Shown: positions 41,686 through 61,570 of the stretch, in pieces | How the letters are laid out: each line of letters opens with the position of its first letter | Position numbering within the stretch: position 1 is the stretch's first letter | Assembly: GCA_017938925.1 (NCBI GenBank) | Contig: JAGBAO010000013.1 | Span: 225,037 to 289,036 of the forward strand | Direction: 5' to 3' | Length of the DNA: 64,000 nt | From: Bacteroidales bacterium | GTDB taxonomy: Bacteria; Bacteroidota; Bacteroidia; Bacteroidales; UBA932 | The notes under the pieces: generated by a model | What the model was told of the DNA's origin: nothing | The model's database searches: none | The model's input: the letters and a program-made list of their open reading frames with translations, nothing else | Program-made: the position numbers and the translations under genes

Positions 41686-44600
41686 ATGAAAAGACTGGTT
41701 CTCCTGACTTGCGCAGCAATATATTCCATAGTAATGGCCGGAGCCACATCCGGGCTGCACAGAGACATCTCGTTCACCCACATTTCCATTAACGACGGCC
41801 TGTCTCAGAGCACAGTCCGTTCTGCATGCCAGGACAGCAGAGGACAGATGTGGTTTGCGACACATGACGGTCTTAACAGATTCGACGGTTATGACTTCAC
41901 CGTATATCGCCACAGGGATGATGACAGCACCTCCATCGCTGATAATATAATAAGAAAGGTATATCTTGACAGCAAAGGCGGATTGTGGGTCGGCACTGAA
42001 AAAGGATTGTCATACTATGACAGGGACAAGGATTCATTCAGAAACTTTTCCACAGGAGGAAAGATAGTGACAGGAATTGCAGAAGACAGCAACGGGAGAT
42101 TCATGGTCGCCACTGGGGGAAGTCTTAGAATCTTCAACAGCAACACGTGGAATTGGGAAATATCTGCCCCCCCCTGCCAGCCTGAAACATTCGGAGCAAC
42201 TATTCTCTACAGGGACAAAGAAGACATCTGGATCGGAACCGGAACCGACGGTCTGTTCAGCTACTCGATAGGATCAAGGGAAATAAAACGCATATCAGCG
42301 TTCAAGAGCAACAGTTCCATTCAATGCCTCCTGAATCATGATGGTAAAATATGGATCGCCACCGAAGGCGACGGCCTGCATAGCATAGACCTTGCAGATG
42401 GAAGTCTCAAAGTGTACCACCACACCGACGCCGCCCGAAGCCTGAATTCCAATTTTGTGAGGGCCTTGCAGACAGACAAAGACGGGAATCTGTGGATCGG
42501 GACATTCAATGGCCTTAGCATTCTGGATGGAGACGGATTCATAAACATAAAGAGCGATCCTTTCGTTCATGGAAGCCTGTCTCAAAGTTCCGTCAGATGC
42601 ATCTGCCGCGACAATCAGGGTGGAATGTGGCTTGGCACCTGGTTCGGAGGGATAAACTACTGGCATTCATCGCGTAACAGATTTGACCATATTCAGATGC
42701 AATATGGTGGAAACAGTCTTAACGACAATGTGGTGAGCTGCATGGCGGAAGACAAGGAGGGAACATTGTGGATCGGAACCAACAGCGGAGGAGTAAACCA
42801 CTATGATCCAGACCGTAACCGATTCACATACTACAAGTTACAGCCAAACGCAGAGACCCTCAGCCTTGAATCCAATGATATAAAGGCCATATATATAGAC
42901 GATGAGGCCGGACGCATCTATATCGGCGCCCACGCCGGAGGCCTGAGCATAATCGACAGACGAAAAAAGACACTCAGTCACTCCAAGACCAGCGGACAGC
43001 TGGATATCTATGCAATCGAACCTGACGGAAAGGAAAGGCTCATTCTCGGTACACTGGATGGTCTGAAAAGTTTCAACATGCTGTCCGGAGCAATATCTTC
43101 TCTTGACGAGGACAAGGAGGGTTATCCCATCAGGAAACTGAAGGTCAGAGCCCTGCTCAAGGATTCCCGGGGAAGACTGTGGATAGGTGGAGAAAACGGG
43201 CTGGCCACCTATAGAAATACAGACGGACAACTTGAAAGATGCGACATTCAGCATAATGCCTCTCCACTTCAGTCAGTATTCGTTCAGAGCATATATGAGA
43301 GTACGACGAAGCTGATATGGATCGCCACAAGGACAGGTCTGTGGTGCTACGATGACAAGGAAAACACCTTCAGCCATTACACAAGTGCCGATGGTCTGGC
43401 AAATGACATCATAGATGGGATTGAAGAAGACTCCTACGGCAGATTATGGTTAAGCACAGACAACGGGCTGAGCTGTTTCAATCCATTCTCCGGTACATTC
43501 AGAAACTTCTCGACTTCAGACGGTCTGCAGAACAATCAATTCAATCCTGGCTCTCACTGCAGAAGAAGGAACGGTGAAATCATGTTCGGAGGAATATATG
43601 GAATCTGCTCATTTACACCCTCGACTATTGAAGACAATCCATACACTCCTCAGCCTATAATAAGCCGACTGGAAGTGTTCAACAAGCCTGTAAGGCCGGG
43701 AGACGGCAGCGGAATTCTCAAGAAAAGCATCACTGAGGCAGATGTGATGACACTGCGGCATGACCAGAACTCGTTCACACTGGAATTCTGTGTCACAAAC
43801 TACCTTGCAGGACGTCACAACACATTTGCTTACAAGCTTGACGGATATGACAGGGAGTGGTATGAGGTCAAGGAAAAGAGAAGCGTATCGTATTCGAATC
43901 TGCCGCACGGCACATACACATTCATGGTCAAGGCCGCAAATAATGACGGGAAATGGAATGACACCCCTGCCACACTCAGGATAAGGATAAGGCCTATATG
44001 GTACAAGACCATTGCTGCAATAACAGCATTTTCAATAATACTACTTATTTTTCTCTGGACCCTCTATCTCTTCATCGTAGAAAGGAAGGAAAGGGAAAAC
44101 AGGCTGGAGCTGGAGAAGCAGGAAAAGAGTCACCAGGAGGATATCCATCAGATGAAGATGAGATTCTTCATCAACATATCCCACGAAATGCGCACGCCTC
44201 TGACACTGATCATCAATCCGCTTTCAGAGATGATAGGGAAAAGCAACGACACCTGGATGCGAAAGCAGCTCAGATATGTTGAGAGAAATGCAAAGAGGCT
44301 CCTTCATCTTGTAAACCAGCTGATGGACTACAGAAGGGCCGAGCTGGGAGTGTTCAAGCTGAAGGTGCAGAAGGAAGATGTCCATAAGATAGTGAAGGAG
44401 AACTGGTCATTCTATGAGAAACTGGCACAAAGCAAGAAGCTCCGCTACTCCCTGATTTCGGAAATGGAAGGAAAGAAGGTGCATGTGGACGGGCAGTATC
44501 TGGAGCTTATTCTTAACAATCTGCTGTCCAATGCATTCAAATACACCGACGAGGGAAGCATCACAGTCAAGGTCTATGAGAGCGAAGATAATCTGAAGAT

Positions 44601-45693
44601 TGAGGTCAGCGACACTGGGGCAGGCATTCCGGCAGGAAAGCAGGACAGGATCTTCGAGAGGTTCTACCAGATAGACAACGAGCATATCGGAAGTGGTATC
44701 GGTCTTTCGCTGATTCAGAGGCTCGTGGAGCTGCATCACGGTACTATTGATCTTATAAGCGAGGTGAACAAGGGATCCACCTTCATAGTGTCACTCCCTA
44801 TCAGAGAATCTGCGTATTCAATTGAAGAACTCAAAGGAGAGGAGGCTCCTGAGGCTCATACCACCAATCCGCAGGAAATGTATATCCTTGACACCGAGCG
44901 TGAAGTCCTGGAACTGGAAAATCCGGAAAACAAGAAACGGGGCAGACTGCTGATTGCAGAAGACAATGAGGATATCAGGGCATATATGAACGATGGCCTG
45001 GCAAAGATATTCGACATAATGCTTGCAAGAAACGGCGAGGAGGCACTGCAGATGATGAAGGATAATGAGCCTGATCTTGTGATTACAGACATGATGATGC
45101 CTGTGATGGACGGACTGAAGCTGTGTGCTCATCTGAAGCAGAACATAACCACAAGTCATATACCTGTAATCATGCTTTCAGCGAAGACCGACAGCAAGGA
45201 CGAGCTGGAAGCCCTCAGGACCGGTGCTGATGACTATATGGCAAAGCCGTTCTCAATGGCCGTGCTCATCACGAAGATACAGAACATGCTCAGAACCCAG
45301 TATCGTCTCCAGGACAAGATGACAAAATCCATGGAGATTTCTCCCGAAAAGATAAGTTTCAACGCCATGGACGAGCAGATTCTCAACAAGGCAATCAGGA
45401 TTGTCGAACAGAATCTGGACAATGCGGAATTCTCGACAGAGGAGTTTGCCAGGGAAATGAACATGAGCCGCTCCAACCTCCATCTCAAGCTTAAGGCTCT
45501 GACAGGAGAATCCGCCCTTGATTTCATCCGCAAGATACGCTTCAAGGAAGCCTGCAGACTGCTCAAGGACGGACGATACAGTGTCTCCGAAATCAGTGAC
45601 ATGGTAGGCTTCAACACTCCGTCATATTTCGCCACATGCTTCAAGAAATATATGGGATGTCTCCCTACGGAGTATATAAGAAAGAACAATTAG
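41686..45693 (+). CDS. Hybrid two-component system (HTCS), likely heparin-PUL regulator (BT4663-like)
   Basis: Beta-propeller repeats (DGLS, LWIGT), Y_Y_Y domain, TM, SHEMRTPL kinase, receiver TDMMMP, AraC HTH; position relative to the PL12-SusC/D-GH88 cluster. Confidence 0.95.
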   Translation: MKRLVLLTCAAIYSIVMAGATSGLHRDISFTHISINDGLSQSTVRSACQDSRGQMWFATHDGLNRFDGYDFTVYRHRDDDSTSIADNIIRKVYLDSKGGLWVGTEKGLSYYDRDKDSFRNFSTGGKIVTGIAEDSNGRFMVATGGSLRIFNSNTWNWEISAPPCQPETFGATILYRDKEDIWIGTGTDGLFSYSIGSREIKRISAFKSNSSIQCLLNHDGKIWIATEGDGLHSIDLADGSLKVYHHTDAARSLNSNFVRALQTDKDGNLWIGTFNGLSILDGDGFINIKSDPFVHGSLSQSSVRCICRDNQGGMWLGTWFGGINYWHSSRNRFDHIQMQYGGNSLNDNVVSCMAEDKEGTLWIGTNSGGVNHYDPDRNRFTYYKLQPNAETLSLESNDIKAIYIDDEAGRIYIGAHAGGLSIIDRRKKTLSHSKTSGQLDIYAIEPDGKERLILGTLDGLKSFNMLSGAISSLDEDKEGYPIRKLKVRALLKDSRGRLWIGGENGLATYRNTDGQLERCDIQHNASPLQSVFVQSIYESTTKLIWIATRTGLWCYDDKENTFSHYTSADGLANDIIDGIEEDSYGRLWLSTDNGLSCFNPFSGTFRNFSTSDGLQNNQFNPGSHCRRRNGEIMFGGIYGICSFTPSTIEDNPYTPQPIISRLEVFNKPVRPGDGSGILKKSITEADVMTLRHDQNSFTLEFCVTNYLAGRHNTFAYKLDGYDREWYEVKEKRSVSYSNLPHGTYTFMVKAANNDGKWNDTPATLRIRIRPIWYKTIAAITAFSIILLIFLWTLYLFIVERKERENRLELEKQEKSHQEDIHQMKMRFFINISHEMRTPLTLIINPLSEMIGKSNDTWMRKQLRYVERNAKRLLHLVNQLMDYRRAELGVFKLKVQKEDVHKIVKENWSFYEKLAQSKKLRYSLISEMEGKKVHVDGQYLELILNNLLSNAFKYTDEGSITVKVYESEDNLKIEVSDTGAGIPAGKQDRIFERFYQIDNEHIGSGIGLSLIQRLVELHHGTIDLISEVNKGSTFIVSLPIRESAYSIEELKGEEAPEAHTTNPQEMYILDTEREVLELENPENKKRGRLLIAEDNEDIRAYMNDGLAKIFDIMLARNGEEALQMMKDNEPDLVITDMMMPVMDGLKLCAHLKQNITTSHIPVIMLSAKTDSKDELEALRTGADDYMAKPFSMAVLITKIQNMLRTQYRLQDKMTKSMEISPEKISFNAMDEQILNKAIRIVEQNLDNAEFSTEEFAREMNMSRSNLHLKLKALTGESALDFIRKIRFKEACRLLKDGRYSVSEISDMVGFNTPSYFATCFKKYMGCLPTEYIRKNN

Positions 45694-45698: not shown

Positions 45699-45732
45699 AA
45701 GCCGGACTAATAAGTCAAAGTCCGGCTTTTTC
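45699..45732 (+). terminator. Terminator hairpin after HTCS, overlapping the last codons of the convergent pilin-heparinase gene
   Basis: AAGCCGGACT / AGTCCGGCTT stem, 10-nt loop, T run. Confidence 0.7.
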
Positions 45733-48655
45733 CATCTATGGTCACGACGACTTCCGATGCAGAACTTCCGAAGGCAGCGGAAACTGCCGGAGCTGAGGAG
45801 TAGTCCTCAATCGGATATATCACTGTGATGAAACGTACAGGAGTATTTGTTCCGCCTATAGCCACAGCCGTACGGTAGTATTTCCTCTCTGTCTTCATAT
45901 TAATTTCCGAAGACGTATATGAAGTACCGGTAGATGGCGTAAAGTCTTCTGCCGGCACTCTCCCCTTCTCTCCCGCAAAGCAGAATGTCTTGAACATCAT
46001 ATTGTTGCCGTCAGTGAAATTCGTATGACAGCCATAAGCATTGGCGCCATATGCATCAAAGGTGATTTCACCAGGACAAAGATGCCAGCTGATCTCTATG
46101 GATGTGTTCACAGCAGATCCCAAGGCAGAATCAAGAATCACATAATACTTTCCGTCCACCATGAACACCACCCTCTCGTGACGTGTATTGCCATATGACT
46201 GGTTCCTGACATGCACCATCAGGCAGTCCTCAGATTCACTTGAAGTCACATATTCACCTCTCATTCTGCTGTCAGCGACAGTCTCAAGACGACGGGTAAG
46301 GGTATTATGCATGGCGGTAGCACGAAAGGCCTCACGCTCGGAACCGTTGGTATATGTATAGGCACCTGCATCCGGAAGGAAATGACGGCCGTTATGATAC
46401 AGCGACACCGTACCGTTATCCGGCTGACAGTGCCACCATGTTCCCCCATCTGTCTTCACATTATAGTTGTTCTTCAGAACAAGCATCGTGGAGTTCTGAG
46501 TCCAGCCGTTGCGGAGCATATACCATCCTGTGGTCGTATATGCCGAAAGAAGTTCTTCAGGGGCTGTTCCACCGGAGAAACCGCTCGCCCAATACTGCAG
46601 GGTGGGATCATCAGGGAACATCTCCGCATATTTGACAAAGTTCCTGGTGAGGGTCGACCTGTTCCAGCTTGAGGAACGGACATCGTTGAAATCCTCAAGA
46701 GAATAATCAGGATATGCCAGATCCCTGACAAACTTCACAGCCTTCTTCAGATACCGGGTGTAATCTGACGGGAAAACTTCCAGCATGTCATTCACAGAAG
46801 CGACCTTATGCATATCATAGAATATGGACACCATCGGAATATGATAACCTGGATCCATCTCGACCAGCACTCCGTCCTCAGCGAACTGCACCTTGACCTG
46901 GGCTGCAACATCGGCAGATGCCTCGGCAAGCCAGTCCTGAGCAGCCTTGAACTCAGGCATCATGACGGCAGCTGTAAAGACAGCCTGAATCTCATACAGG
47001 CGATGGTTGCTCAACTGCACCGGGTAAGGATTAGCCCTTATGCACTCAACAGCATCCGCATATGCTGCAAGAAAATGCGTCAGGAACTCCGGGGTTAAAC
47101 CCTCGGAACCGATGTAATAGTCCAGAACATCAATCTGATCCATCACACGGGCCGAGGCCTGAAGGTCAGTCCACATGTCATATACCGGACTGGAAGAGGA
47201 CAGCTTGTAATCACCTGTAAGTGCGCCCGGGCAAGGGTGAGCTGCAAGCCATGAGGAATATACCTCGACATACGACCTCGGATACACCTCACTTTTCGTT
47301 CCCCAATAGACCTTGGCCTGAGGCAGCACCCATTGATGACGATGCTTCTGAATGTCGAACTGAGTCTCGCCAGCAAGTGTGATGCTCCAGTTTATACCGC
47401 CTGCACCATCTGAGAAGGAATAATACTGGGCATCCGCATCTGTGTCATTACCTTTTTCCGCATAATTCTTCACATAGAAACGGTAGTCGTTCTCCTTAAG
47501 AGCCTGATCTGCACGGTTTTTTTCGACGGCAGAGTATGAAGTCTGAGTCAGATCGACATTCGGATTGACCACGGCGCGCGATGTCTTCCAATATTCCTTC
47601 AATGCAACTGCGGCTTTATACAACTCCCCTGCCTCATACATCTGCTTGACAGTTTCAAGCCCTTGACATTCAAGGTCAAGAAGAGTAAAGACTCGCGAAT
47701 TGACAAGGGAATTCAGTTTTTCCTTCTCTGCCGGCAGCATATCCTCCTTGGCAGTGGACATATCCACGGCAAAGATGTTGCGCGCATTTCTGCGAAGAGG
47801 GAGAGAACATGATGGTATCTCTCTCACATATACTGCCTTGTCAGTAGTCACCGTCACCTCAAGGGAGGTCAGGGTGCATGGAGCTACTGACAGCCAGACA
47901 CGCAGGTCTCCAGAATCTGTCAACTTCAGATTACCAGACTTGACAAGAATCTCTGATGATGTTTCACCGTCAACCGCAGTCATACTATTGGCGTTCAGAT
48001 CCAACGAGAATTTTCCTGCGAGAGAGACTCCGTCTGAAGCCTTGAATGTCACTGATTCGATTATTTCAGACTCTCCTATCCTCAATGACTTCAAGGTAAT
48101 ATCGGCATGTGCGACGAGACGCGTCCAATAGAGCAACAGGTTGTCTTCCGGCACACCCTTGCATGATTCAATTGTTTTTCCCACCATAAGGTCTGCTGCA
48201 GGATCAAAGGAATCCAAAGCAGGTGTCTGGCAGGACGGAAGTTCGACTGTCACTGCAGGGAGCTTCTCAGTACCGCTTTTTACTGCTGACGAAGGATATA
48301 TGGAGTGAAAGTTCAGGGAACCCTCCAGTGAAGATGGCAGATTGAAAACATACTCAGCCTGAGCCTCGTCTGCTTCCAATGCGTCTGAAATGTACATGGA
48401 GCCATGCCAGTTCTTGTCCTCCTTCAGACATAGGGCGATTTTATCGCCAGCAGACCAGACTATAGTTTCACCATCCCAAAATGTTTTGGACTTCAGGGCA
48501 CAGGTATCGTTCCAGACAGGCATTTCTGATGAAAAGACCACCCTCGTCATCTTGGCAGACGAATCAGGAACGAGCGCATCCTCATGTCTTTGGCAAGAAA
48601 ACAAGGCGACAGCCGCAAACGCAGCTATCGCCTTAATGTGAAAAGTAGGTTTCAT
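45707..48655 (-). CDS. Fimbrillin (type V pilin-like) domain fused to a PL12 heparinase II/III-like lyase; lipoprotein
   Basis: N-terminal ~305 aa: lipobox LFSC, KSKTFWDGETIVWSAGDKI, SIYP, P..QTP...SFDP.AD, RLVA, PLRRN. Remainder: LLDL...GLE.VK, HRHQW, SNH, EMDPGYH, YP.....FND, GWYMLRNGW, HCQPDNGT, PDAG.YTY, HNTL, clearly homologous to 51019 and 61571. Confidence 0.88.
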   Translation of the reverse strand: MKPTFHIKAIAAFAAVALFSCQRHEDALVPDSSAKMTRVVFSSEMPVWNDTCALKSKTFWDGETIVWSAGDKIALCLKEDKNWHGSMYISDALEADEAQAEYVFNLPSSLEGSLNFHSIYPSSAVKSGTEKLPAVTVELPSCQTPALDSFDPAADLMVGKTIESCKGVPEDNLLLYWTRLVAHADITLKSLRIGESEIIESVTFKASDGVSLAGKFSLDLNANSMTAVDGETSSEILVKSGNLKLTDSGDLRVWLSVAPCTLTSLEVTVTTDKAVYVREIPSCSLPLRRNARNIFAVDMSTAKEDMLPAEKEKLNSLVNSRVFTLLDLECQGLETVKQMYEAGELYKAAVALKEYWKTSRAVVNPNVDLTQTSYSAVEKNRADQALKENDYRFYVKNYAEKGNDTDADAQYYSFSDGAGGINWSITLAGETQFDIQKHRHQWVLPQAKVYWGTKSEVYPRSYVEVYSSWLAAHPCPGALTGDYKLSSSSPVYDMWTDLQASARVMDQIDVLDYYIGSEGLTPEFLTHFLAAYADAVECIRANPYPVQLSNHRLYEIQAVFTAAVMMPEFKAAQDWLAEASADVAAQVKVQFAEDGVLVEMDPGYHIPMVSIFYDMHKVASVNDMLEVFPSDYTRYLKKAVKFVRDLAYPDYSLEDFNDVRSSSWNRSTLTRNFVKYAEMFPDDPTLQYWASGFSGGTAPEELLSAYTTTGWYMLRNGWTQNSTMLVLKNNYNVKTDGGTWWHCQPDNGTVSLYHNGRHFLPDAGAYTYTNGSEREAFRATAMHNTLTRRLETVADSRMRGEYVTSSESEDCLMVHVRNQSYGNTRHERVVFMVDGKYYVILDSALGSAVNTSIEISWHLCPGEITFDAYGANAYGCHTNFTDGNNMMFKTFCFAGEKGRVPAEDFTPSTGTSYTSSEINMKTERKYYRTAVAIGGTNTPVRFITVIYPIEDYSSAPAVSAAFGSSASEVVVTIDGKSRTLTY

Positions 48656-48664: not shown

Positions 48665-50572
48665 TTAAAGAGTACCGTAGTCTACAGAGACGTAGTTGGC
48701 AGCTGCGTAGTTGGCTGTTTCGGGTGAAGCAACGACCTCACGCTGAGCACCGGCAGTATATGTTTTACCATCATAAGTAATTGTATTTAAACTGCAAATC
48801 CCTGAGGCTGGATTCCAATTGCTAACTCTTGGATCATCAATCGATTTAGGATTATTTCCTGTAAAACCATTATATATTTGAACTCCTTTCTCGTAGTCTC
48901 CTTTGTAGAAAAAGTTATTTTCCACAGACACTTCATTAGGGGAAGTCCCCATCACATATTTAAGTCCGCCAGTAATATTTGCTTCCAAGAATACATTGTA
49001 ATTGATAGAGACACTGACACTTGCTTTAGTTGCATTGACTAGAGCTTTGCCTATTGGAGTCTCGTCGAAAGTGTTGTATGAGAGAATAATGCTAGAATAT
49101 TCAACCGTTCCTGAACCGCCATCATTAAGTAAAACAAAACCAGTCATCTCAATTCCTGAATTAACATAGAAGACATTATTGTAAAAGTTTGTATTTACAA
49201 TCTTAGTCCCGGTTTGATTACCAGTAACAAAATTGAAGGTAGCTTTAGGGTTTTGAATCTCTATATCACAACCACTTACAACAAAGTCATTGATTACAAC
49301 AGCTCCATTATTCAGCCTAAGGAATCCGTCTCCAGTATTTATAATCTTACAATTATCGAAGATTATCTTGTCAAAAGTACCGACATTAGCTTTTGTTTCA
49401 ATTCGCTTCAAAGTGTAATGAAGATTTGCACACAAAAATATACCATCTTTGGTATTCGGCTGGGCATTATCATTCTGTACTATTGCGGAGCGTTGTGAAG
49501 AATCCTCTCCAATCAGAATAAGAGAACTTGAATTATAATCAACTGTTGCTGCTATTGATGCTGGCACAAAATATATTCCATCATTTTTGATTGATGAAGT
49601 TTCAGGCCGCACCCTCACTATTGGAAAATTTGAATAGTCTTTAAAAGTGTCTTTATTAAAAGTATATCCCCCAAAAGTAAGATCAAAACCATCATTATAC
49701 TTCACGAAATAGTTCATATGTGGTTCATAATCTGTGCTGGCAAGTTTAGCCATCGGAAGAACCTGATTCCTCTGATTCAGAGATAAAATAGATTTTGTGG
49801 TCTTCTTTGCCACCTGACTGCCATCTTTCATGGAAAGAATGACAGTGAAACCCTCCTCGAACTCGACAGGAACGACTGTAAAGAAATAATCGCCTGGTTC
49901 GAGCACCTTGCCACCATTTCTCAGAGTCACATATGTTTCCGCCTTTGTTACTTTCAGAGTAGGAGACTCAGTAGAAAAGTCAATGGTATAAAGTCCTGCA
50001 AGAGTCTCATTCCTGTTACCCATGAGTGTAATGGATACGACATCCGTAAGATCTTCAGCGAGAGTGAAACGAATATGTGAAGTCATATTCTTGAAAGCAA
50101 GGCGGTTCTCTGCATCAGCCTTTGCCACCATCACAGCACCTCCGTTTCCTTTTGCATATGAACCAAGAACAGCTGCCTGGTCCGGAAACAGCTTTGAAGT
50201 AATGGTCATGGCATCTTTATCAAACTCCGCTGCACTCGTCCTTTCCGGATAAAGAGCATAGAACGCAGTCGCACCCTCTGTCACTTCTCCGGTAAAGACT
50301 GATGTCGCACCACCGACAGCTGTAGTGAAGGTATTCTTGCCTCCGAGATTATCAAATACCGTGATGGCATCGTTTGCTGCCCACTCAACAGTTCCCTCGC
50401 CATCAACGATACCTGCCTTGGTCTCTAAAGCAGTGGTAAACTCCATAGGAACGAGCTTCAGTTCTACGTTCTCCTCAGGATTGTTCTCAGGATTGTTCTC
50501 AGGAAGAACTTCCTTAGCACATGACATTGCCATTACAGCAAGTGCAAGCATGAAAAATGATCTTGTCTTCAT
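48665..50572 (-). CDS. Fimbrillin-like lipoprotein with C-terminal beta-helix-like cargo
   Basis: Start MKTRSFFMLALAVMAMSC at 50572 (the track start overlaps the peptide gene). ETKAG...WAANDAITVF, FYALYP, LAFKNMT, QRNQVL; C-terminal repeats IIFDNCKI / FYNNVFY / SYNTF / VENNFFY. Confidence 0.72.
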   Translation of the reverse strand: MKTRSFFMLALAVMAMSCAKEVLPENNPENNPEENVELKLVPMEFTTALETKAGIVDGEGTVEWAANDAITVFDNLGGKNTFTTAVGGATSVFTGEVTEGATAFYALYPERTSAAEFDKDAMTITSKLFPDQAAVLGSYAKGNGGAVMVAKADAENRLAFKNMTSHIRFTLAEDLTDVVSITLMGNRNETLAGLYTIDFSTESPTLKVTKAETYVTLRNGGKVLEPGDYFFTVVPVEFEEGFTVILSMKDGSQVAKKTTKSILSLNQRNQVLPMAKLASTDYEPHMNYFVKYNDGFDLTFGGYTFNKDTFKDYSNFPIVRVRPETSSIKNDGIYFVPASIAATVDYNSSSLILIGEDSSQRSAIVQNDNAQPNTKDGIFLCANLHYTLKRIETKANVGTFDKIIFDNCKIINTGDGFLRLNNGAVVINDFVVSGCDIEIQNPKATFNFVTGNQTGTKIVNTNFYNNVFYVNSGIEMTGFVLLNDGGSGTVEYSSIILSYNTFDETPIGKALVNATKASVSVSINYNVFLEANITGGLKYVMGTSPNEVSVENNFFYKGDYEKGVQIYNGFTGNNPKSIDDPRVSNWNPASGICSLNTITYDGKTYTAGAQREVVASPETANYAAANYVSVDYGTL

Positions 50573-50585
50573 AATACATCCTCCT

Positions 50586-50729
50586 TTACCAAGCCTGTTC
50601 ATTCAGGAAATCATATTTCTCCAATTCTGTGAATGTGCTCGTGCAGAGCAAGTCATGAGGGACTAACTCCATCTCCATGACATAAGGGGTCTCATATTGA
50701 TTGTCCCTTTCGAAAGTCTTGAAATTCAT
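50586..50729 (-). CDS. 47-aa small protein, YxxP...LLCxS motif
   Basis: Hand translation MNFKTFERDNQYETPYVMEMELVPHDLLCTSTFTELEKYDFLNEQAW*. Stop is 13 nt before the fimbrillin ATG. Confidence 0.8.
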   Translation of the reverse strand: MNFKTFERDNQYETPYVMEMELVPHDLLCTSTFTELEKYDFLNEQAW

Positions 50730-51018: not shown

Positions 51019-53193
51019 ATGACTACACATATGAAACACACAACAATTTTAACCGCACTATGCATGACAGCGCTTCTTATGTCATGCAGTTATGAAGATG
51101 ACATCCTCATCAAGGATGCCGATCAGAGTCCTGCAATCAGCACGCAGGACACAGTCTCCTTCCGAGACACATCAGGAATCTTCGATATTCTGAATCTGGC
51201 ACATCCGGGACTGGAAGAAGTTAAAAGTGCAGTAGAGGCAGGCGACACCCTTGCTGCAGCCAAAGCCCTGCTGGAGTATTGGCGTTACGGAAGGACTGCA
51301 GTCAACCCGTACATCGACCTGATCAACACGACCATTTCAGAGACGGACCTGCGTATAGCCGACCAGGCATGCGAACATCGGTTCTACGTCAAAGGATTTG
51401 CAGAAAAGGAGGAAGATGGAGTCGCCACATACTATCTCTTCGAGGACAAGAGCAAGAACATCGACTGGAATTTCACCACAGACAAGGTCACTGATCAGGA
51501 ATTCCGTTATCAGCGCCATCGCCACCAGTGGATGGAGCCTCAGGCAAAGGCGTACCGTGTCACAGGAGATGAGAAATACATAAAGTCCTGGATAGAGGTG
51601 TACAGTGACTGGCTCCGGACCTTCCCATGTCCGACAGGAAAGGTCTATCCGCCGGCAGGAGGTGCGGAAAACGACATCGAGTATGAATGGAAAGGCCTTC
51701 AGGTTGCAGAACGAGTCCTCAGCCAGATGAACATCATCCCATATTTCATCTATTCCGAAAATTTCACACCACAGTGGCTCTGCACAGTATTGAGTGAGTT
51801 TGCCAAGGCTGTGGAACTCATGAGACTCAACTACTATACGGATTCAAACATCCTGATCACCCAGTCTCAGGCGGTGGGATTTGCCGGGGTGATGATGCCT
51901 GAATTTGCAAAGGCCCAGGAATGGGCAGAGGAAGGATTCGGCAAACTTGCAGACAATGCCTCCAGCCAGTTCCTGGCAGATGGAGTCCACTATGAACTGG
52001 ATCCAAGCTATCACATAGCAGCGATCGCTGATTTCACTGAGGCCAGCGATCTTCTTGCTGCCAACGGTCGCACTGAACTTCTTCCGTCGGATTTCACATC
52101 CAAGTTGCAGAATGCCGCGCATTTCGTGATGGATATGGTCTATCCTGACTACAGCATAGACAACTGGAACGACACACGCTCCGCTTCATACACGAAAAAT
52201 GTCCTCAAGAGGAATTTCAAGACCTACTCGGAGATGTTCCCGGAAGACGGAGAACTCAAGTGGATGGCGACTGAGGGCGCAGAAGGGACTAAGCCAACCC
52301 ATCTGACTAACGCCTACAGCACAGCAGGATATTATATACTGAGAAACGGCTGGGACGCGAACTCCACCATGATGATCCTGAAGAACTGCAATGACCCTCT
52401 GGGCGGATGGCATAATCAGAGTGACAACGGAACGTTCGGTCTCTGGATCAAGGGACGCAACTTCTTCCCTGATGCAGGATGCTACGCATATAGCGGAAAT
52501 GACAGGACAACCTGGGCCTCAACAAGATACCACAACACAATAACGGTCCAGAGCAAGGACATTCTTCCTTCATTCCGCAAGGGCGAACTGAAGTTGCTGG
52601 AAGAGGGAGAAGACGGATCGGTCACACTCGTCACTCAGAATACGCCGGTCTTCGCAAGTTCCGAAGATGTGACCTACACCCATAGAAGGGCTGTCTTCTT
52701 CGTAGAAAAGTCGTTCTTTGTGATTGTTGATGAGCTTTATGACGGCGGTGTTCAGAGCAAAAAGAAAGTCAACTTGAACTATCATATCCTCGGCAGCAAC
52801 GCAGTTGTTGATGACTTTTCCGAAGTATGTCAGTCCGGCATGCACACCGAATATCCTGACGGAAACAATATACTCCTGCATGTATTCACAGAAACCACAC
52901 AGGATTTTGCAGTAGATCCTAAAAACACTTCAATCGACTTTTCCGACAATATCGGAATCAAGAGCGGTAGCAGGAAGGGACTCCAGCATACGATAAGGGA
53001 GCCGCTCGACGGAGCCGCAAGGTTCATTACCGTGATATACCCATTCAGCAACTCATTCTCTGACAACACGGTTGATGCCATATTCACTGACAACACAGAA
53101 GAAGGCAGCGCGGGAACATTCCATGCTGAAGGTGCCGCAGTGAAAGTGACTGTCAACGGCAAGGAGTACGAGCTTTCATACACATTGAATTAA
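51019..53193 (+). CDS. PL12 heparinase II/III-family lipoprotein (BT4662-like)
   Basis: Lipobox LMSC-SYEDD, HRHQW, ELDPSYH, YP..S...WND, GYYILRNGW, HNQSDNGTF, PDAG. Start 51019 or 51031. Confidence 0.88.
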   Translation: MTTHMKHTTILTALCMTALLMSCSYEDDILIKDADQSPAISTQDTVSFRDTSGIFDILNLAHPGLEEVKSAVEAGDTLAAAKALLEYWRYGRTAVNPYIDLINTTISETDLRIADQACEHRFYVKGFAEKEEDGVATYYLFEDKSKNIDWNFTTDKVTDQEFRYQRHRHQWMEPQAKAYRVTGDEKYIKSWIEVYSDWLRTFPCPTGKVYPPAGGAENDIEYEWKGLQVAERVLSQMNIIPYFIYSENFTPQWLCTVLSEFAKAVELMRLNYYTDSNILITQSQAVGFAGVMMPEFAKAQEWAEEGFGKLADNASSQFLADGVHYELDPSYHIAAIADFTEASDLLAANGRTELLPSDFTSKLQNAAHFVMDMVYPDYSIDNWNDTRSASYTKNVLKRNFKTYSEMFPEDGELKWMATEGAEGTKPTHLTNAYSTAGYYILRNGWDANSTMMILKNCNDPLGGWHNQSDNGTFGLWIKGRNFFPDAGCYAYSGNDRTTWASTRYHNTITVQSKDILPSFRKGELKLLEEGEDGSVTLVTQNTPVFASSEDVTYTHRRAVFFVEKSFFVIVDELYDGGVQSKKKVNLNYHILGSNAVVDDFSEVCQSGMHTEYPDGNNILLHVFTETTQDFAVDPKNTSIDFSDNIGIKSGSRKGLQHTIREPLDGAARFITVIYPFSNSFSDNTVDAIFTDNTEEGSAGTFHAEGAAVKVTVNGKEYELSYTLN

Positions 53194-53205: not shown

Positions 53206-55452
53206 ATGAGACACAGATTATCAATAATTCTCTGCCTTATTGCCTCGGCAGCCGCACTTATCGGGTGCAGGCAGGAATCTCTTGAAAAAGAGGGCTTCCA
53301 GCTCTACTATTCTGGAGTAACCAACATAGGTCCTAATCTGACGGTCAATCTGACCGCCCATCATTTCGGAGGGGAGCCTGAAGAATTTGCAATTACAGAG
53401 GTGAAGTTCGGCTCAGACGCATACGAGGGGCCGGAATTCACGATCAATCCTGAAAACGGTACGGTCACAGTTGCAGGAGTTCCTGAAACTCAGGCCGGAG
53501 ACTATACAGTATCAGTAAGCTGCAAAGTGTCGGGAACTGTCCTAAGCTATCCGGGCATCATAGAAGTCACGTTCTTCAAGGGTGTGCCGGATGAAATAAA
53601 GGTAAGTCCTGATACGCTCATTCTGGATCTTTCTACGCTAAAAAAGGATTCACAGGCCAATGATACGACTGCAACTATAACCACTGACGGCGACCATATT
53701 GCTGTTACCGGATACAGGATAGCAAATGTCAGATTCGGAGATGAAGTCATCGACAACATTGCAAGCCCTCATTTCAAAGTATCCGAAGATGGAATCATCA
53801 CGGTTCTGAAGAACGACAGTTTCAAGATCGGAACATATTCAATAGACCTCAAACTCAGCACATCATCTTTCGGAAGTGAAAGTGAAGTCGGTCTGTTCAC
53901 TGACGCCTTGACAGTCAAGGTGGTTTCTGTTCCAGTTTCATTCTCATACAGTCCTGACTCAGGGCTTCTTGAAGAAGAGGAGAACGGTGTGAAGACTTTT
54001 TTAGTGAGCGCGGCCCCCGTCCTCGAAGGTTCAAATGAAGATGTAAGATGGAGAATTTCCGGATGCACTCCTGCCAATGATAAACTGCTCATAGATCCGC
54101 AGACCGGAGTGCTCAGCATCAAGGAAGGTCATGGACTCAAGAAGGATGTGACTTACGTAGTTGATGTGAATGTACGGAACAAATATTCCACGGACGATGG
54201 ACTTACCATAAAGGGGGCATATATCATTGAAGTCGTAGGCTATATTGCTCCAATCGAGCATTTCGGCTATACCGGAATCAGCATAAAGCAAGGCCTGGGA
54301 TGCTCAGTCAGCCCTGATGCTGAAACTGACAGAGAACATATCAGACACTACGAATGGACGGATGCTGAAGCCTCATATGCCAAGGTACTTGTTCTGAACT
54401 CAAAGACAGGTGAGATAACTGTTGCGAAGGGCAATGACCTGCCTGTAGGAAATCATGAGATTTCCGTGACTGCGGCAAACGGCAAGACCGGTGGAGAAGT
54501 CGTAGCCGTATTCTCTCTCGAGATCACCGAAAACCCATACTATTTCACTCATTTCAGTTACGGAAACAATCTTGGACTCTCCGAAGAGCAGACTGATGGG
54601 GTCAGTCAGTTCAGAGTGAAGTCAAAAGATGAGCTCAAGGCTCTGACTGCTGAAATCAAGTTCAGCGACATGTCAGAAGAAGCCAAGGCAATCGCCAAAT
54701 GGTCGATGAAGAACGGAAACAAACTGAACAACCTCAGCATTGATGCGGCAACAGGAGCCATATCATTCCCGGCAGAGACAGGTGATTCATTCACCAACGA
54801 AGCGATGGGAATAGCACTTATAACCGCAACAGTGACAGATCCGGAGGACAGCGAGAACACCTTCAAAGTTACTGTTCCGTTCTGCGTTGACTTTGCGGCA
54901 GAGGTGAACAATGTCCTGGTAACATACGATCCGTTCGTGTTCAGAGTTAACCCTAAGACTGGCGGCAGGTCTTCTGCAGCCACAGTCACAGGTGTCGCTG
55001 CAGACAAGTTCCTGATAGATTTCAGACGCTCGTTCAACTACTATAACATATATGGTGTCGATGAAAACGGGAATGATCTGGTCAACGGTATACCAAACAA
55101 GGAAGGTTCTTTCCTGCAGAAGATATGGGACAAGTTCACTGAAGAAACAGGGCTGAACCTTAAGAATGGACTGCCGAATTACGAAGCCAAGGCCCCTGTA
55201 TCCTTCTACAACAACACCATTGAAAAAACCGGTGAACAGTTGTCAAAGACCGGGGCTTATGTAGACAACACCCCTGGTGCGAACCAGTTCACTTTGGTCG
55301 TGAGTCCGGGAGTCTGGCATGCAGATGGATGGGCTGACGGAATTTTTACAGGACAGATGACCTTCGCCACAGACGGAGCAATCGGAAGCGTGAACAATGG
55401 AGGCAAGAGAGCACCTATCGCCATCTGGCTCGACAAGGACTTTGAAGAATAA
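53206..55452 (+). CDS. Surface glycan-binding lipoprotein (BT4661-like position and architecture)
   Basis: Lipobox LIGC-RQE; serial Ig-like repeats (F.I.P..G.I, YTVSV, ID..TG.I); lies between PL12 and SusC. Confidence 0.7.
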   Translation: MRHRLSIILCLIASAAALIGCRQESLEKEGFQLYYSGVTNIGPNLTVNLTAHHFGGEPEEFAITEVKFGSDAYEGPEFTINPENGTVTVAGVPETQAGDYTVSVSCKVSGTVLSYPGIIEVTFFKGVPDEIKVSPDTLILDLSTLKKDSQANDTTATITTDGDHIAVTGYRIANVRFGDEVIDNIASPHFKVSEDGIITVLKNDSFKIGTYSIDLKLSTSSFGSESEVGLFTDALTVKVVSVPVSFSYSPDSGLLEEEENGVKTFLVSAAPVLEGSNEDVRWRISGCTPANDKLLIDPQTGVLSIKEGHGLKKDVTYVVDVNVRNKYSTDDGLTIKGAYIIEVVGYIAPIEHFGYTGISIKQGLGCSVSPDAETDREHIRHYEWTDAEASYAKVLVLNSKTGEITVAKGNDLPVGNHEISVTAANGKTGGEVVAVFSLEITENPYYFTHFSYGNNLGLSEEQTDGVSQFRVKSKDELKALTAEIKFSDMSEEAKAIAKWSMKNGNKLNNLSIDAATGAISFPAETGDSFTNEAMGIALITATVTDPEDSENTFKVTVPFCVDFAAEVNNVLVTYDPFVFRVNPKTGGRSSAATVTGVAADKFLIDFRRSFNYYNIYGVDENGNDLVNGIPNKEGSFLQKIWDKFTEETGLNLKNGLPNYEAKAPVSFYNNTIEKTGEQLSKTGAYVDNTPGANQFTLVVSPGVWHADGWADGIFTGQMTFATDGAIGSVNNGGKRAPIAIWLDKDFEE

Positions 55453-55466
55453 AAGACAGAACAGCT

Positions 55467-58400
55467 ATGACTAATCTATATAATATATGGAAGAAGGCGG
55501 CCATGGTGCTCATCACCATGTGTCTTGCCATAAATGCCTTCGCACAGGATATAACCCTCAACGGTACTGTCCTGGACGAGAACAACCAGCCTCTGACCGG
55601 AGCGGGTGTGATGGTCAAGGGAACGACAAACGGCGAGGTGACAGATCTCGACGGAAAGTTCACCATCTGGCTTTCAAAGAAAGGCGTAGATATCACCGTA
55701 TCCTACATAGGCTACAAGACATACGAGTTCCGCTATGCAGGTCAGGACAATATAATCATCCGACTGGAACCCGACACGGAGCTTCTTGAGGAGATCGTTG
55801 TTGTCGGATACGGCACCATGAAGAAGAGTGACCTCACGGGATCTGTTGCCTCTGTCTCGTCTGATGCCATCGAAGGCTATCAGGCAAGTACTGTTGCCGG
55901 AGCCCTCGGAGGACAGATTGCCGGCGTGCAGATCACCCAGACCGACGGTACCCCTGGAGCAAGCGTTAACATCAACATCCGCGGAGTCGGAACCCTCAAC
56001 GGAGATTCCTCCCCTCTGTTCATCGTTGACGGATTCCAGGTGGACAACATCGACTGGCTGTCAAATGCCGATATCGAATCCATCGAAGTCCTTAAGGACG
56101 CATCCTCAGCAGCGATCTATGGATCAAGAGCTGCCAATGGAGTGCTTATGGTGACCACCAAATCAGGAAGAGAGAGCAAGCCTACCATTTCCTACAACGG
56201 TTCCGCATCTTACCGCAAGATCTCGAAGAGACTGGACGTCCTGACTCCTTATGAATTTGTGAAACTCCAGACAGAGGTGAATCCAGATTACGCAAAGACC
56301 TATTTCAAGGAAGGAAACGACGAGGACGGAGTTCCATACAAGTACCAGAGCCTCGATGACTATATCGGCCAGAAAGGTGTGGTATGGCAGGACGAGACCT
56401 TCAATCCTACATGGTCACAGGATCACAACGTGTCCATAGCAGGAGGTTCTTCAGACTCTCAGTACAGCGCCCTTTTCTCGCACTATGACGAAGAAGGAAT
56501 CTTCAAGAACAGCGGATTCAACAAGACTACTGCAAAACTCCGTTTCAAGCAGAAGCTGTGGAAGAACGTGACCATGGAGGCAACCGTCAATTATGCCCAG
56601 ACAAACAGAAGGGGTGCGGGTACTACAGCCGACAACGGCCGTTTCAACATGCTGGCTCAGATTCTGAGCGCCAGACCTACCGGTGGTCTGAAAGTATCTG
56701 ATGCAGAACTGCTTGAGCTGGCGATAGACCCTGAAATGGAAGAGGAGGGAGAATCACTTGCCCAGGTGAACCCTGTGAAGCAGACTCAGTCAGTAACCAA
56801 TACGAAAAGAGGAGAGATGTGGTCCGGAAACGTATCCTTTTCATGGGAGATCATCAAGGGACTGACGTTCAGGAGCGCTGCGACTTACAACAATACTGTA
56901 ACCCGCACGAATGTGTTCTATCAGAACGGATCCAAGGAGGCACATCGCAACGGAAAGAGCCCTTACGGCCAGTCCCAGTTCAATCGAGATGTCCGCTGGG
57001 TGAACTTCAACCACCTGACATGGAGGCAGAAGATCAAGAAGCACAGCTACGATGTGATGATCGGACACGAGGTTTCCTCCAAGACCACGGAATATCTCCA
57101 GGGACAGGCGATGAACTTCCCTTTCGACAATCTTGAAAACGACAATCTCGGACTTGGCGCAACTCCAAGCAAGGTCGCCTCTTACTATGCCGGCAACTCT
57201 CTGCTGTCGTTCTTCGCAAGAGCCAACTACAACTATGCCAACAGATACCTTTTCACAGCCACGATGCGTGCTGATGGTTCGACTGTATTCTCGGCAAAGA
57301 ACAAATGGGGATATTTCCCGTCATTCTCTGCAGCATGGCGCATAGACAAGGAGGATTTCATGAAAAACGTAAGCTGGATCTCCAACCTTAAGCTTCGTGC
57401 CGGATGGGGAACGGTAGGAAATGACCGTATCGCCAACTACCTGTCACTTGATCTCTACACTCCTGAGAAATATGGAATCGGGACTACCATGGTTTCTGTG
57501 CTGACTCCAAAGCAGTTGCGCAACTCCAACCTCAAATGGGAAGGTTCATCCACAGTCAACCTCGGACTCGACTTCGGATTCCTCAAGGACAGGATATCCC
57601 TTTCGGTCGATCTGTTTGACAAGAACACCAAGGACCTCCTCCTTGCCCAGCAGCTTGCCCATGCGACAGGATTCTCCTCACAGATGCAGAATATCGGAAA
57701 GATCCGCAACAGAGGTCTTGAGATAACCTTCAACAGCACCAACATAGACCGCAAGAACTTCCTGTGGCAGACCAACTTCAACATCTCGTTCATTGAGAAC
57801 AAGCTGGTTTCTCTCGCTGACGGAACAGACTATGTTCAGGCCCGTTCAGGATTCGACTCCAACTTCACCGCAAATGACTACATAGCCATAGTCGGACAGT
57901 CTCTCGGACTGATCTACGGTTATGAGTGGGACGGTCTGTATCAGGCTGACGACTTCGTGGTGACCCCTGGAGGCGAATATATCCTCAAGGAAGGTGTGGT
58001 GAACAACCCGGCATACACGAACGGAGTAAGACCGGGATATGTGAAATATGTCGATCAGACCGGAGACGGCAAGATCACGACTGAAGACAGGACCGTAATC
58101 GGAAATGCCCTTCCGAAATGGTACGGAGGTATCACCAACACCTTCAGCTTCTATGGCGTGGACTTCAGCTTCATGTTCCAGTACAACTACGGCAACGACA
58201 TCTACAACGCCACCAGAGTGTTTGCAACACAGTCCAGAAGAGGACGCGTGAACATGCTCGCGGAAGTTGCAGACAGATGGAGACCGGACAACGCGAACAA
58301 CACCGTTCCGGTATATGACGGTTATGTCACGAACGACATATATTCCCGCTTTGTCGAAGACGGTTCCTTCCTTCGTCTTAAGAATGTGACTCTGGGATAC

Positions 58401-58607: not shown

Positions 58608-58618
58608 AAGCGACGACA

Positions 58619-60283: not shown

Positions 60284-60297
60284 CAATTAAACTATAT

Positions 60298-61569: not shown

Positions 61570-61570
61570 T

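Follow-up and report, generated by a model that had tools for sequence, protein, structure and literature searches.

A type V pilin-fold module fused to a predicted PL12 heparan-sulfate lyase in a Bacteroidales heparin/heparan-sulfate PUL

In the 64-kb stretch of gut Bacteroidales DNA analyzed here (the window), one gene of a heparin/heparan-sulfate (HS) PUL encodes a heparinase that begins with a pilin-like module. The locus raises the question of how such an enzyme is held at the cell surface, by an assembly related to pili or by a spacer. To our knowledge, type V pili are known only as adhesive organelles, and a literature search found neither an enzyme-bearing type V pilin nor a pilin-like PUL domain. 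A preliminary description of the gene had suggested a lyase mounted on a pilus, and this reading as a whole was partly supported. The target gene comprises the following features.

45707..48655, minus strand: whole target ORF, 982 aa with ATG at 48655; lipoprotein in which a linker joins a type V pilin-fold module to a PL12 heparinase III module
48593..48655, minus strand: signal peptide and lipobox (aa 1-21, MKPTFHIKAIAAFAAVALFS-C21), read from the sequence (...ALFS-C21)
48578..48592, minus strand: QRHED (aa 22-26), adjoining the lipidated Cys; candidate signal for lipoprotein export to the surface (family consensus C-Q-K-E/Q-E)
47756..48592, minus strand: type V pilin-fold module (aa 22-300) that comprises two β-sandwich domains and has no free C-terminal donor strand (AlphaFold2 and Foldseek)
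48527..48550, minus strand: aa 36-43 (MTRVVFSS), forming β1, the 'anchor strand' of the pilin module; residues 16-23 of the model
48482..48487, minus strand: K57-T58, where type V prepilins carry the Arg/Lys cleavage site of their β1-β2 loop; cleavage predicted
47693..47755, minus strand: linker (aa 301-321); in the PL12 alignment, target aa ~306 is the first residue matched to BT4662 (4fnv residue 35)
46592..47692, minus strand: Hepar_II_III_N domain (aa 322-688, Pfam E 5e-85) with N550 (47006-47008) and Y604 (46844-46846)
45926..46549, minus strand: Hepar_II_III_C domain (aa 703-910, Pfam E 4.7e-23) with H742 (46430-46432) in WWHCQPDNG

The ORF was confirmed at 45707-48655 on the minus strand with 982 aa. 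An identical protein was present on 11 contigs, the longest of 513 kb, and the cluster at 90% identity or more comprised 69 members in public collections, where the near-identical proteins carry the NCBI name 'alginate lyase family protein'. A survey of relatives for the same fusion, as proposed in the preliminary description, yielded full-length fusions with 44-85% identity at no fewer than 13 additional loci; their ORFs are intact and the catalytic residues are kept. These data effectively refute a chimeric assembly or a decaying fusion without function, even though obvious truncations or chimeras occur among the database relatives (e.g. P0169 and P0051).

In line with the earlier proposal of a type V pilin domain, structure prediction gave the N-terminal ~280 aa a two-domain type V pilin fold. 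The AlphaFold2 model of the module was all-β (pLDDT 88.3, pTM 0.85), and its 20 best Foldseek matches in the PDB were all Bacteroidales type V pilins of the FimA/Mfa superfamily including Mfa2 and Mfa3 (E 4e-9 to 5e-5, probability 1.00, TM about 0.35-0.55). FimA structures were found at ranks 24 and 27, and the entries 4k4k, 3sy6, 3ufi, 3t2l, 4h40, 4jg5, 5nfi, 5nf4 and 6jzk matched with E values of 4e-9 to 2e-4. Assigning a stalk, anchor or tip class from these ranks was rejected, since every class reached E <1e-4 with TM 0.35-0.55. The HMM matches that had been expected for both parts of the protein were obtained for the PL12 part with Hepar_II_III_N and Hepar_II_III_C, whereas no fimbrillin model matched the N-domain. 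Searches of the pilin module against Pfam (E up to 10, including Mfa_like_1, P_gingi_FimA and Mfa2), NCBIfam and PDB sequences gave no meaningful match, and its pilin identity was reached only via structure prediction plus Foldseek.

The motifs that had been read in the N-terminal part, namely lipobox, C-QRHED and K-T, were all present in the translation and, according to their conservation in an alignment of 177 members of the module family, are beyond chance. The lipidated C21 was kept in 176/177 members, with Q at position +1 in 111/177 and K at position +2 in 145/177. The C-QRHED stretch resembles published Bacteroidota surface export signals and is a candidate for such a signal. The alternating β1 positions L39, F41 and S43 were kept in 137, 168 and 167 of the 177 members, respectively. 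Position 57 was K or R and position 58 was T in all 177 sequences, as invariant as W67 and D71 (177/177 each). In the target, K57-T58 is followed by FWDGETIVWSAGDKI and preceded by a loop (aa 47-54) with pLDDT <50 in the AlphaFold2 model. The module shows the order known from prepilins: a lipidated Cys, the β1 strand, a flexible loop and an invariant K/R. The end of the module (...LPLRRNARNIFAVDM, aa 285-299) differed in part from the earlier reading of LRRN as a closing strand. In the model, LRRN is located in the turn ahead of the last module strand, RNIFAVD (aa 292-298).

A C-terminal donor strand was absent from the target's module, which is followed by the 680-aa PL12 part ending in line with the C-terminus of BT4662. 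With this large C-terminal cargo a role as stalk or anchor is ruled out, and only a donor-less subunit of the tip or accessory type fits. As modelled, aa 22-300 have the fold of a type V pilin that lacks a donor strand, as in tip or accessory subunits.

The module falls into an extensive subfamily without annotation (4339 cluster representatives) and was always located at the N-terminus of lipoproteins. A word-indexed homologue search returned five matches, and the wider family required profile and exhaustive searches. The cargos following the module included nucleases, lyases, a phosphodiesterase and many binding domains (Ig-like, BACON), so that the fusion is not as singular as the preliminary description had implied.

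The PL12 part (aa 305-982) aligned end to end with the solved heparinase III structures 4fnv (E 2.8e-113), 5jmd and 4mmh. The motifs SNH (N550), PGYH (Y604) and WWHCQPDNG (H742) were read in the translation; by alignment these residues equal chain positions 216, 270 and 400 of 4mmh, i.e. Asn240, Tyr294 and His424 of HepIII. In HepIII, Tyr294 and His424 are catalytic and Asn240 is neutralising (PMC12088678). Pfam and the structure-sequence alignment hence bear out an earlier claim, that of a full-length PL12 module with catalytic Asn, Tyr and His. However, its close resemblance to the enzyme at 51019 had been overstated, as the PL12 identity was only 37% (30% to the enzyme at 61571). The fusion scored 507.3 bits on NF045572 (HepC; equivalog cut-off 600) and 317.8 bits on NF045573 (cut-off 700). 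By sequence it is a member of the PL12 family and not a curated HepC equivalog, and it encodes a predicted cell-surface HS lyase of the heparin/HS PUL. The surrounding genes of the window are given below.

41686..45693, plus strand: hybrid two-component sensor (HTCS) of the PUL
51019..53193, plus strand: second PL12, a BT4662-like lipoprotein (..LLMSC-SYEDD) without pilin module
53206..63583, plus strand: rest of the heparin/heparan-sulfate PUL with BT4661-like SGBP, SusC, SusD, GH88 and a third PL12 (HepC, above the NCBIfam cut-off)
2..838, minus strand: classical fimbrillin-like gene at the window edge

The closest known system is the heparin/HS PUL of Bacteroides thetaiotaomicron with its surface PL12 HS lyase BT4662 (4FNV). 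The catalytic part of the fusion is homologous to BT4662 over the full length with the same Asn, Tyr and His, and BT4662 is likewise a lipoprotein encoded beside an HTCS, a BT4661-like SGBP, SusC/D, GH88 and a periplasmic PL12. In contrast, the catalytic domain of BT4662 is preceded by about 34 residues and that of the fusion by its 280-aa pilin-fold module. Since the PL12 alignment begins at aa ~306 and 4fnv residue 35, the pilin module takes the place of the N-terminal linker, which is short in BT4662. A BT4662-like enzyme is encoded separately in the window (51019-53193), which makes the fusion an extra, third PL12. Linkage of the fusion to SusC/SusD, HTCS, BT4661-like SGBP and GAG enzymes was found in the window and in the loci L001, L003, L004, L008, L009 and L031-L033.

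No stalk or anchor pilin gene was found next to the fusion, neither in the 64-kb window nor in the ~20 related loci whose flanks could be read (L001-L010 and L021-L033; none within 10 kb in the examined loci). The proposed mounting on a classical pilus was therefore left without support. Unassigned flanking ORFs were considered as stalk or anchor genes and rejected, all being housekeeping genes or GAG enzymes. The sole pilin-type gene adjoining the fusion encodes a β-helix protein with a pilin module of its own.

48665..50602, minus strand: upstream gene in the same orientation, separated from the target by 9 nt; from the likely start at 50572 it encodes a 635-aa lipoprotein in which a pilin-fold N-module is followed by a right-handed β-helix and a conserved, predicted-disordered C-terminal tail
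48665..48739, minus strand: tail that ends the upstream protein (...EVVASPETANYAAANYVSVDYGTL, with the stop codon), preceded by an invariant G-A-x-R; pLDDT about 34

Both genes are putatively co-transcribed, and the pair is kept in GAG PULs of divergent Bacteroidales. A promoter and terminator scan of 45400-51100 gave counts at the level of shuffled sequence; the sigma-70 consensus does not fit Bacteroidota. The upstream N-module was related to that of the target with an hhalign probability of 96%. The AlphaFold2 model of the upstream protein (pLDDT 84.6) matched 3ufi, 3t2l and 5nf4 in Foldseek, in addition to weak matches to β-helix lyases. The motif E-T-K52 was kept in at least 90% of the members of the β-helix family. 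The tail comprised 24 residues, 14 of which are hydrophobic or aromatic, and was strongly conserved (Y627 in 60/68, D631 in 51/68, G633 in 62/68) yet unstructured in the monomer model. It was specific to the β-helix family; a tail shared across the whole module family or by other tandem pairs was not found.

Next to tail-bearing homologues with readable downstream DNA, a module-carrying PL12 of 960-983 aa followed within about 110 nt in 10/10 cases, whereas 0/3 tail-less homologues had a pilin-PL12 fusion downstream. This comparison comprises 13 informative loci; P0290, P0281 and P0285 were left out, as their contigs stop just past the gene. One of the tail-less homologues was followed by a 709-aa PL12 lipoprotein without pilin module, with an ambiguous orthology given identities of 38% to the PL12 part of the fusion and 41% to the BT4662-like paralogue. 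The three tail-less forms sit within three different tail-bearing clades of a neighbour-joining tree, but the tree carries no support values and the three losses may therefore not be independent. One tail-bearing homologue was unlinked from the fusion although the latter was present in the same assembly, which counts against the pairing. Since the tail is present exactly where the lyase carries a pilin module, the lyase may be mounted on the β-helix lipoprotein. However, most other members of the module family (with nuclease, BACON or Ig cargo) lacked a tail-bearing neighbour, and their invariant K/R thus needs another explanation or another donor.

Based on these findings we tentatively favor a two-subunit, strand-complemented assembly of the β-helix protein and the pilin-PL12 lyase, and regard an inert spacer as nearly as likely. 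In the favored assembly, the lyase would be lipidated at C21 by Sec/SPII and exported to the surface, and its β1-β2 loop would be cut after the invariant K57 in the manner of type V prepilins. The ~24-residue tail of the β-helix protein might then enter the groove of the lyase's pilin module and push out the lipidated β1 strand. The lyase would stand on the β-helix protein as a short two-subunit, minimal type V-like 'catalytic pilus' instead of a long polymer of stalk pilins. It could cut HS chains away from the membrane and pass the products to the SGBP and SusCD encoded alongside.

For this two-subunit assembly count the invariance of K/R57 in a loop of low model confidence, E-T-K52 in the upstream family and the cleavage of a Bacteroides tip pilin at the equivalent R43 (preprint, bioRxiv 10.1101/2024.11.15.621889). 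The C-terminal donor strand taken up by donor-less subunits has about 21 residues, most of them hydrophobic (PMC13655056), and the length, hydrophobicity, conservation and monomer disorder of the tail match the logic of donor-strand assembly. The same fold reached independently for the upstream module, the co-occurrence of tail and module, the integrity of the lyase and the PUL context are further points in its favor. Compared to the stalk pilins FimA and Mfa1 with their protease-mediated strand exchange, the upstream tail resembles the ~21-residue hydrophobic donor strands of Mfa1 in length and character. However, the FimA/Mfa1 donor strands come directly after the pilin C-terminal domain, whereas a ~300-aa β-helix lies between in the upstream protein, and no homopolymer is implied. 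Against the two-subunit assembly, we know of no case in which a donor strand is sited after a 300-aa cargo domain.

An inert spacer would make the module a rigid extension of ~8-9 nm, never cut and without strand exchange, that keeps the lyase, a monomer with a permanent lipid anchor, at a distance from outer membrane and capsule. The dimensions of Mfa2 (85 x 35 x 25 Å; PMC5789003) suit this reading, as do the position of the module exactly where BT4662 has a short linker between lipidated Cys and catalytic domain, its many unrelated cargos, often along with BACON or Ig spacers, and the lack of nearby stalk or anchor genes in the window and related loci. Spacer domains are also an accepted part of PUL lipoproteins: DUF1735, BACON and Ig-like SGBP spacers separate the catalytic or binding domain of PUL surface proteins from the lipid anchor (PMC11216935), and BACON often co-occurs with the pilin module. 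However, the prepilin features of a β1 anchor strand and an invariant basic site of the cleavage type are absent from these spacers, as is a candidate donor strand in a neighbouring gene. The invariant K/R-T (177/177) in a flexible loop is left unexplained by a spacer, anchor pilins being never cut and without such a cleavage-type site (PMC5789003), and so is the co-occurrence of tail and module. If the lyase were instead the tip of a classical type V pilus, ending a long filament, its stalk and anchor pilins would have to be encoded elsewhere in the genome, which we consider improbable.

The classical pilus would account for the fold, the position of the cleavage site and the donor-less architecture of tip and accessory pilins, and a fimbrillin-like gene is present at the window edge, 2-838(-). 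Bacteroides genomes contain many pilin operons, e.g. 93 genes in 22 operons in B. fragilis, and there are documented hybrids of tip pilins and additional cargo domains (bioRxiv 10.1101/2024.11.15.621889). However, known tip pilins are encoded at the ends of anchor/stalk operons (same preprint), whereas the fusion is a conserved component of a PUL without such genes. Furthermore, no clear case of a cargo-less, stalk-like form was found among the 150 closest subfamily members. Less probable still is a releasable tether, in which the lyase, after a cut behind K57, would no longer be held covalently by its lipid anchor but non-covalently by the β1 strand, and could be shed to the medium or sorted to outer-membrane vesicles. 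It agrees with the invariant basic residue of the loop and with the cut β1 strand of type V pilins, which remains bound until displaced (PMC13655056); vesicle-targeted pilin-like lipoproteins are reported for P. gingivalis (PMC11225709). On the other hand, a tether does not explain the co-occurrence of the tail, and PUL logic favors a cell-bound surface lyase such as BT4662.

Tip and accessory pilins with extra C-terminal domains are BovFim1C (4EPS), Mfa3/Mfa4, Mfa5 (vWA) and the DGR-diversified BfrT and BthT (C-type lectin). Like these, the fusion has a lipoprotein precursor, the two-β-sandwich fold, β1 with an Arg/Lys loop, no donor strand and a C-terminal cargo. In contrast, their cargos are adhesive or lectin domains and not a 680-aa enzyme, and no Pfam fimbrillin model recognizes the module of the fusion.

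In its widest form, the proposal is that the pilin module is a type V-derived system for enzyme display, in which β-helix lipoprotein and PL12 join by protease-triggered donor-strand complementation into a 'catalytic mini-pilus' and the same module, present in thousands of proteins, serves gut and rumen Bacteroidales to hold nucleases, lyases and phosphodiesterases at the cell surface. We put this forward as a possibility that is rather unlikely in full. If true, an enzyme-bearing, strand-exchange-competent pilin module in a nutrient locus would link the chemistry of pilus assembly to glycan foraging and provide a mechanism for projecting a host-glycan lyase past the capsule. If the module is only a spacer, it is still a new and very common building block of Bacteroidales surface enzymes. 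Either way an annotation would be gained for a large family, whose representatives are now called 'hypothetical' or 'alginate lyase family'. Among the module relatives, 1/36 matched PF13149 (E 0.0026) and one is named 'fimbrillin family protein' by NCBI.

The 982-aa protein encoded at 45707-48655 is a lipoprotein in which a donor-less type V pilin-fold module is joined to an intact PL12 lyase, and it lies beside a conserved partner gene in a PUL for heparin/heparan sulfate (HS). Each part is of a known kind: the one a surface PL12 lyase, the other a carrier with the type V pilin fold. The following features of the PUL were located:

41686-45693, HTCS
45707-48655, minus strand, target ORF (982 aa, stop included, ATG at 48655)
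48665-50602, minus strand, co-oriented 645-aa gene upstream of the target
51019-53193, BT4662-like PL12
between the BT4662-like and the HepC-type PL12, BT4661-like SGBP, SusC, SusD and GH88
61571-63583, HepC-type PL12

The reference heparin/HS system of B. thetaiotaomicron has been summarized (PMC9067506). The reading frame, lipobox, K57-T58 pair and full PL12 module noted in the preliminary description were all recovered. The translation opens with MKPTFHIKAIAAFAAVALFS-C21-QRHED, contains a short β1 strand (MTRVVFSS, aa 36-43) and thereafter reads ...ALKSK57-T58-FWDGETIVWSAGDKI. Near-identical proteins are labelled 'alginate lyase family protein' at NCBI, and the N-terminal third is unannotated. 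Since the exact protein is present in public collections and its cluster at 90% identity comprises 69 members, with contigs as long as 513 kb, the chance of an assembly artefact is negligible.

In the Pfam search, aa 322-688 matched Hepar_II_III_N (E 5e-85) and aa 703-910 matched Hepar_II_III_C (E 4.7e-23). Residues 305-982 align over the full span with BT4662 (4fnv, E 2.8e-113), BT4657 (5jmd) and Pedobacter HepIII (4mmh). N550, Y604 and H742 are aligned to 4mmh chain positions 216, 270 and 400, which with an offset of 24 residues correspond to Asn240, Tyr294 and His424. In heparinase III, Asn240 is the neutraliser and Tyr294/His424 form the catalytic base/acid pair (PMC12088678). Because of this end-to-end alignment and the match to the catalytic residues, the PL12 module is complete and looks catalytically competent. 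Its NCBIfam HepC score (507) is below the equivalog cut-off of 600, and it shares only 37% identity with the BT4662-like enzyme and 30% with HepC of the same PUL. The nearest protein in function is BT4662, the surface PL12 of the B. thetaiotaomicron PUL. Alignment with BT4662 starts at residue 35 of the latter, and therefore the extra 280 residues of the target fill exactly the space that separates its lipidated Cys from the catalytic domain.

For this N-terminal part the proposed HMM check came back negative: Pfam gave no match to aa 1-320, even with E up to 10. NCBIfam and a PDB sequence search found no match either, and none of the fimbrillin sequence models recognises the module. Relatives were retrieved by word-indexed search (5) and profile search (35); among the latter, NCBI gives the name 'fimbrillin family protein' to one, and a weak PF13149 match was seen in one. 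The AlphaFold2 model of aa 21-312, built from the profile-search alignment, is all-β (pLDDT 88.3, pTM 0.85), and pLDDT falls below 50 only in the first nine residues and the loop aa 47-54. The 20 best Foldseek matches in the PDB are all Bacteroidales type V pilin-superfamily structures. They include 4k4k, 3sy6, 3ufi, 3t2l, 4h40, 4jg5, 3up6 and 4dgu as well as the anchor Mfa2 (5nfi) and the tips BovFim1C (4eps) and Mfa3 (5nf4); the FimA prepilins 6jzk and 6jzj occupy ranks 24 and 27. The pilin matches had E-values of 4e-9 to 4e-4, a probability of 1.00 and TM scores of 0.35-0.55. The outcome that the preliminary description had named as refuting, an N-domain without a pilin-like fold, was thus not seen, and the claim of a pilin fold stands. 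As all classes match, stalk, anchor and tip pilins are not separable by the Foldseek ranks.

In type V prepilins a lipidated Cys is followed by a β1 anchor strand and then by a flexible β1-β2 loop, which is cut at Arg/Lys (R46 in FimA, R49 in Mfa1, R43 in Mfa3, R54 in Mfa4); anchor pilins are without this loop site. C-terminal donor strands are present in stalk and anchor pilins and absent from tip and adaptor pilins (PMC13655056, PMC5789003). In an alignment of 177 members of the target's family, the lipobox C21 was conserved in 176, followed by Q at +1 (111) and K at +2 (145; consensus C-Q-K-E/Q-E), and the β1 residues L39, F41 and S43 in 137, 168 and 167, respectively. Position 57 is K or R, and position 58 is T, in all 177. 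The target has all prepilin sequence and fold features except the donor strand, which is ruled out because the C-terminal cargo occupies the end of the protein; it can hence belong only to the donor-less (tip or accessory) class. Nearest in architecture are tip pilins with extra domains, namely BovFim1C, Mfa5 and BfrT; the last is diversified by a DGR and is cut at R43 (bioRxiv 10.1101/2024.11.15.621889). Compared with the type V pilin superfamily, the target shares the fold and the precursor features but lacks the donor strand, the operon setting and recognition by sequence models. By fold we therefore place it in the superfamily, as a divergent and donor-less member, and do not regard it as a demonstrated pilus subunit.

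The module is found far beyond this locus. Of the 1.84 billion cluster representatives covered by an exhaustive profile search, 4339 proteins matched at E up to 1e-3, 279 of them at E up to 1e-30. The module was N-terminal in all of the 150 best hits, whose sizes ranged from 259 to 1257 aa. According to Pfam scans of 115 long relatives, the cargo comprised BACON (34), Endonuclease_NS (15), CHB_HEX_C_1 (12), Fn3_assoc (11), Big_2 (10), fn3 (10), Flg_new_2 (9), Heparinase II/III (3) and GDPD (1). Enzyme cargo is common on this module, which serves widely as a carrier and is no isolated case; our literature search found no paper describing such cargo. Full-length pilin-PL12 fusions were present in two relatives, P0064 and P0156 (64% and 42% identity to the target), and in ten species-representative genomes of Bacteroidales, Muribaculaceae, Cryptobacteroides and Rikenellaceae from animal guts. 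The survey of related genomes thus recovered the same fusion, which is not unique but old and maintained.

Endonuclease_NS (DNA/RNA non-specific endonuclease) and GDPD phosphodiesterase cargo occurred among relatives P0036-P0179, and pilin-fold-anchored surface nucleases appear to be common in rumen and gut Bacteroidales. The relative P0118 (808 aa) carries the N-module and a heparinase-N-like region, and its last residues, ..GGIYIQNGKKFIVK, resemble a C-terminal sorting domain of the T9SS. It represents either a chimeric contig or a lipoprotein that also bears a T9SS signal, in which case it would recall Mfa5.

The upstream gene ends 9 nt before the target ATG. Its product (645 aa, or more likely 635 aa with M at 50572 as the start) likewise carries a lipobox, a β1 strand and an E-T-K52 site, and its N-terminal part is homologous to the target module (HMM E 9e-13, hhalign probability 96%). 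The AlphaFold2 model (pLDDT 84.6) matches the type V pilins 3ufi, 3t2l and Mfa3 (E about 1e-5), and the pilin-fold part is followed by a right-handed β-helix that only weakly resembles the folds of PL6, RbmB, pectin methylesterase and tailspikes. A weak DUF4957 match was also seen. An invariant G-A-x-R precedes the C-terminal tail of ~24 residues, ...PETANYAAANYVSVDYGTL, encoded by the last ~75 nt of the gene (48665-48739, minus strand). The tail is predicted to be disordered (pLDDT about 34) but is strongly conserved, as at Y627 (60/68), D631 (51/68) and G633 (62/68). Some β-helix homologues end exactly at the Arg of G-A-x-R. The order of β-helix gene and pilin-PL12 gene, with a gap of 9-110 nt, is kept at identities down to 30% and 44%. 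A small called gene (45-66 aa) without family match lies just upstream of the β-helix gene in the related loci L024, L025, L027, L031 and L033 (about 4800-5000 in the coordinates of each locus).

The tail of the β-helix protein and the module of the lyase co-occur. Ten tail-bearing homologues had readable downstream DNA (the window, L001, L003, L004, L007, L008, L009, L031, L032 and L033), and all ten are followed by a PL12 of 960-983 aa with the module (HMM E 1e-64 to 1e-101). In the tail-bearing L028 the fusion is not adjacent, and the same assembly carries it elsewhere (L006). Where the tail is missing or degenerate (L021, L024, L027), the fusion was downstream in none of three loci: in L024 and L027 an HTCS follows immediately, and in L021 a 709-aa PL12 lipoprotein has a low-complexity linker where the module would be. 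In a neighbour-joining tree without support values, for which the tail was left out of the input, each of the three tail-less proteins falls within a different tail-bearing clade. L021 (1176-13364, Logan contig ERR15157069) is a variant GAG locus, in which the stop of the preceding gene and the start codon of the 709-aa PL12 overlap by 4 nt. It also encodes two proteins with Hepar_II_III_C only and two esterases, one GDSL and one AXE1.

We tentatively favor a reading in which the invariant K/R57 of the lyase module would mark proteolytic maturation as in type V pilins, and the tail of the β-helix partner would be the donor strand filling the groove of that module. A short two-subunit assembly would then hold the lyase at a distance from the membrane. 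This hypothesis is sharp and testable, owing to the invariant cleavage-type site, the range of enzyme cargo and the co-occurrence of tail and module. Points against it are that the co-occurrence sample is small and not fully independent, that the orthology of the 709-aa PL12 in L021 is ambiguous, and that tail-bearing neighbours are lacking for other module-family members. Additionally, we know of no donor strand that follows a large cargo domain. Almost equally probable is a pilin-fold module that serves as an inert spacer; this accounts for its position and for the missing pilus genes but leaves the invariant basic residue and the tail/module co-occurrence unexplained.

Mounting on a classical pilus, as originally proposed, is unlikely. 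No Pfam FimA-, Mfa1- or Mfa2-type genes were found in the 64-kb window, nor within 10 kb of the fusion in L001-L010, and the initially unassigned ORFs flanking the fusion were sulfatases, PL8 lyases and housekeeping genes. Documented Bacteroides tip pilins are located at the ends of anchor/stalk operons (bioRxiv 10.1101/2024.11.15.621889), and the lack of such an operon around the fusion argues against a classical pilus; it does not settle the matter, as stalk genes could lie elsewhere in the genome. From the original interpretation the pilin fold and the intact PL12 were thus retained, and the pilus mounting was not. A tether releasable by cleavage is quite improbable.

The sole candidate conventional pilin in the window lies 45 kb from the target (2-838, minus strand). 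Of this classical fimbrillin-like lipoprotein (..LLASAC.., ..QQTR-VGF..YWHSGDRIGV..; HMM E 4e-7, no Pfam match) the window holds the N-terminal part, and the C-terminus is lost at the window start. Furthermore, a 743-aa lipoprotein (13103-15334, plus strand) has the N-module signature (..AFSC.., ..LETK-TAWDG..WSDGD..; HMM E 2e-12, no Pfam match). It directly follows a second PUL-like cluster, possibly for the use of nucleic acids or phosphoesters, which comprises SusC (1113-4226), SusD (4239-5819), proteins with BACON and DUF5689 domains, and enzymes of the Metallophos and Exo_endo_phos families. In some relatives, PL8 (chondroitin/hyaluronan-type) lyases are found in the same PUL as the fusion (L004, 4914-7796; L009, 20065-21210), so the locus may target more than HS in those species.
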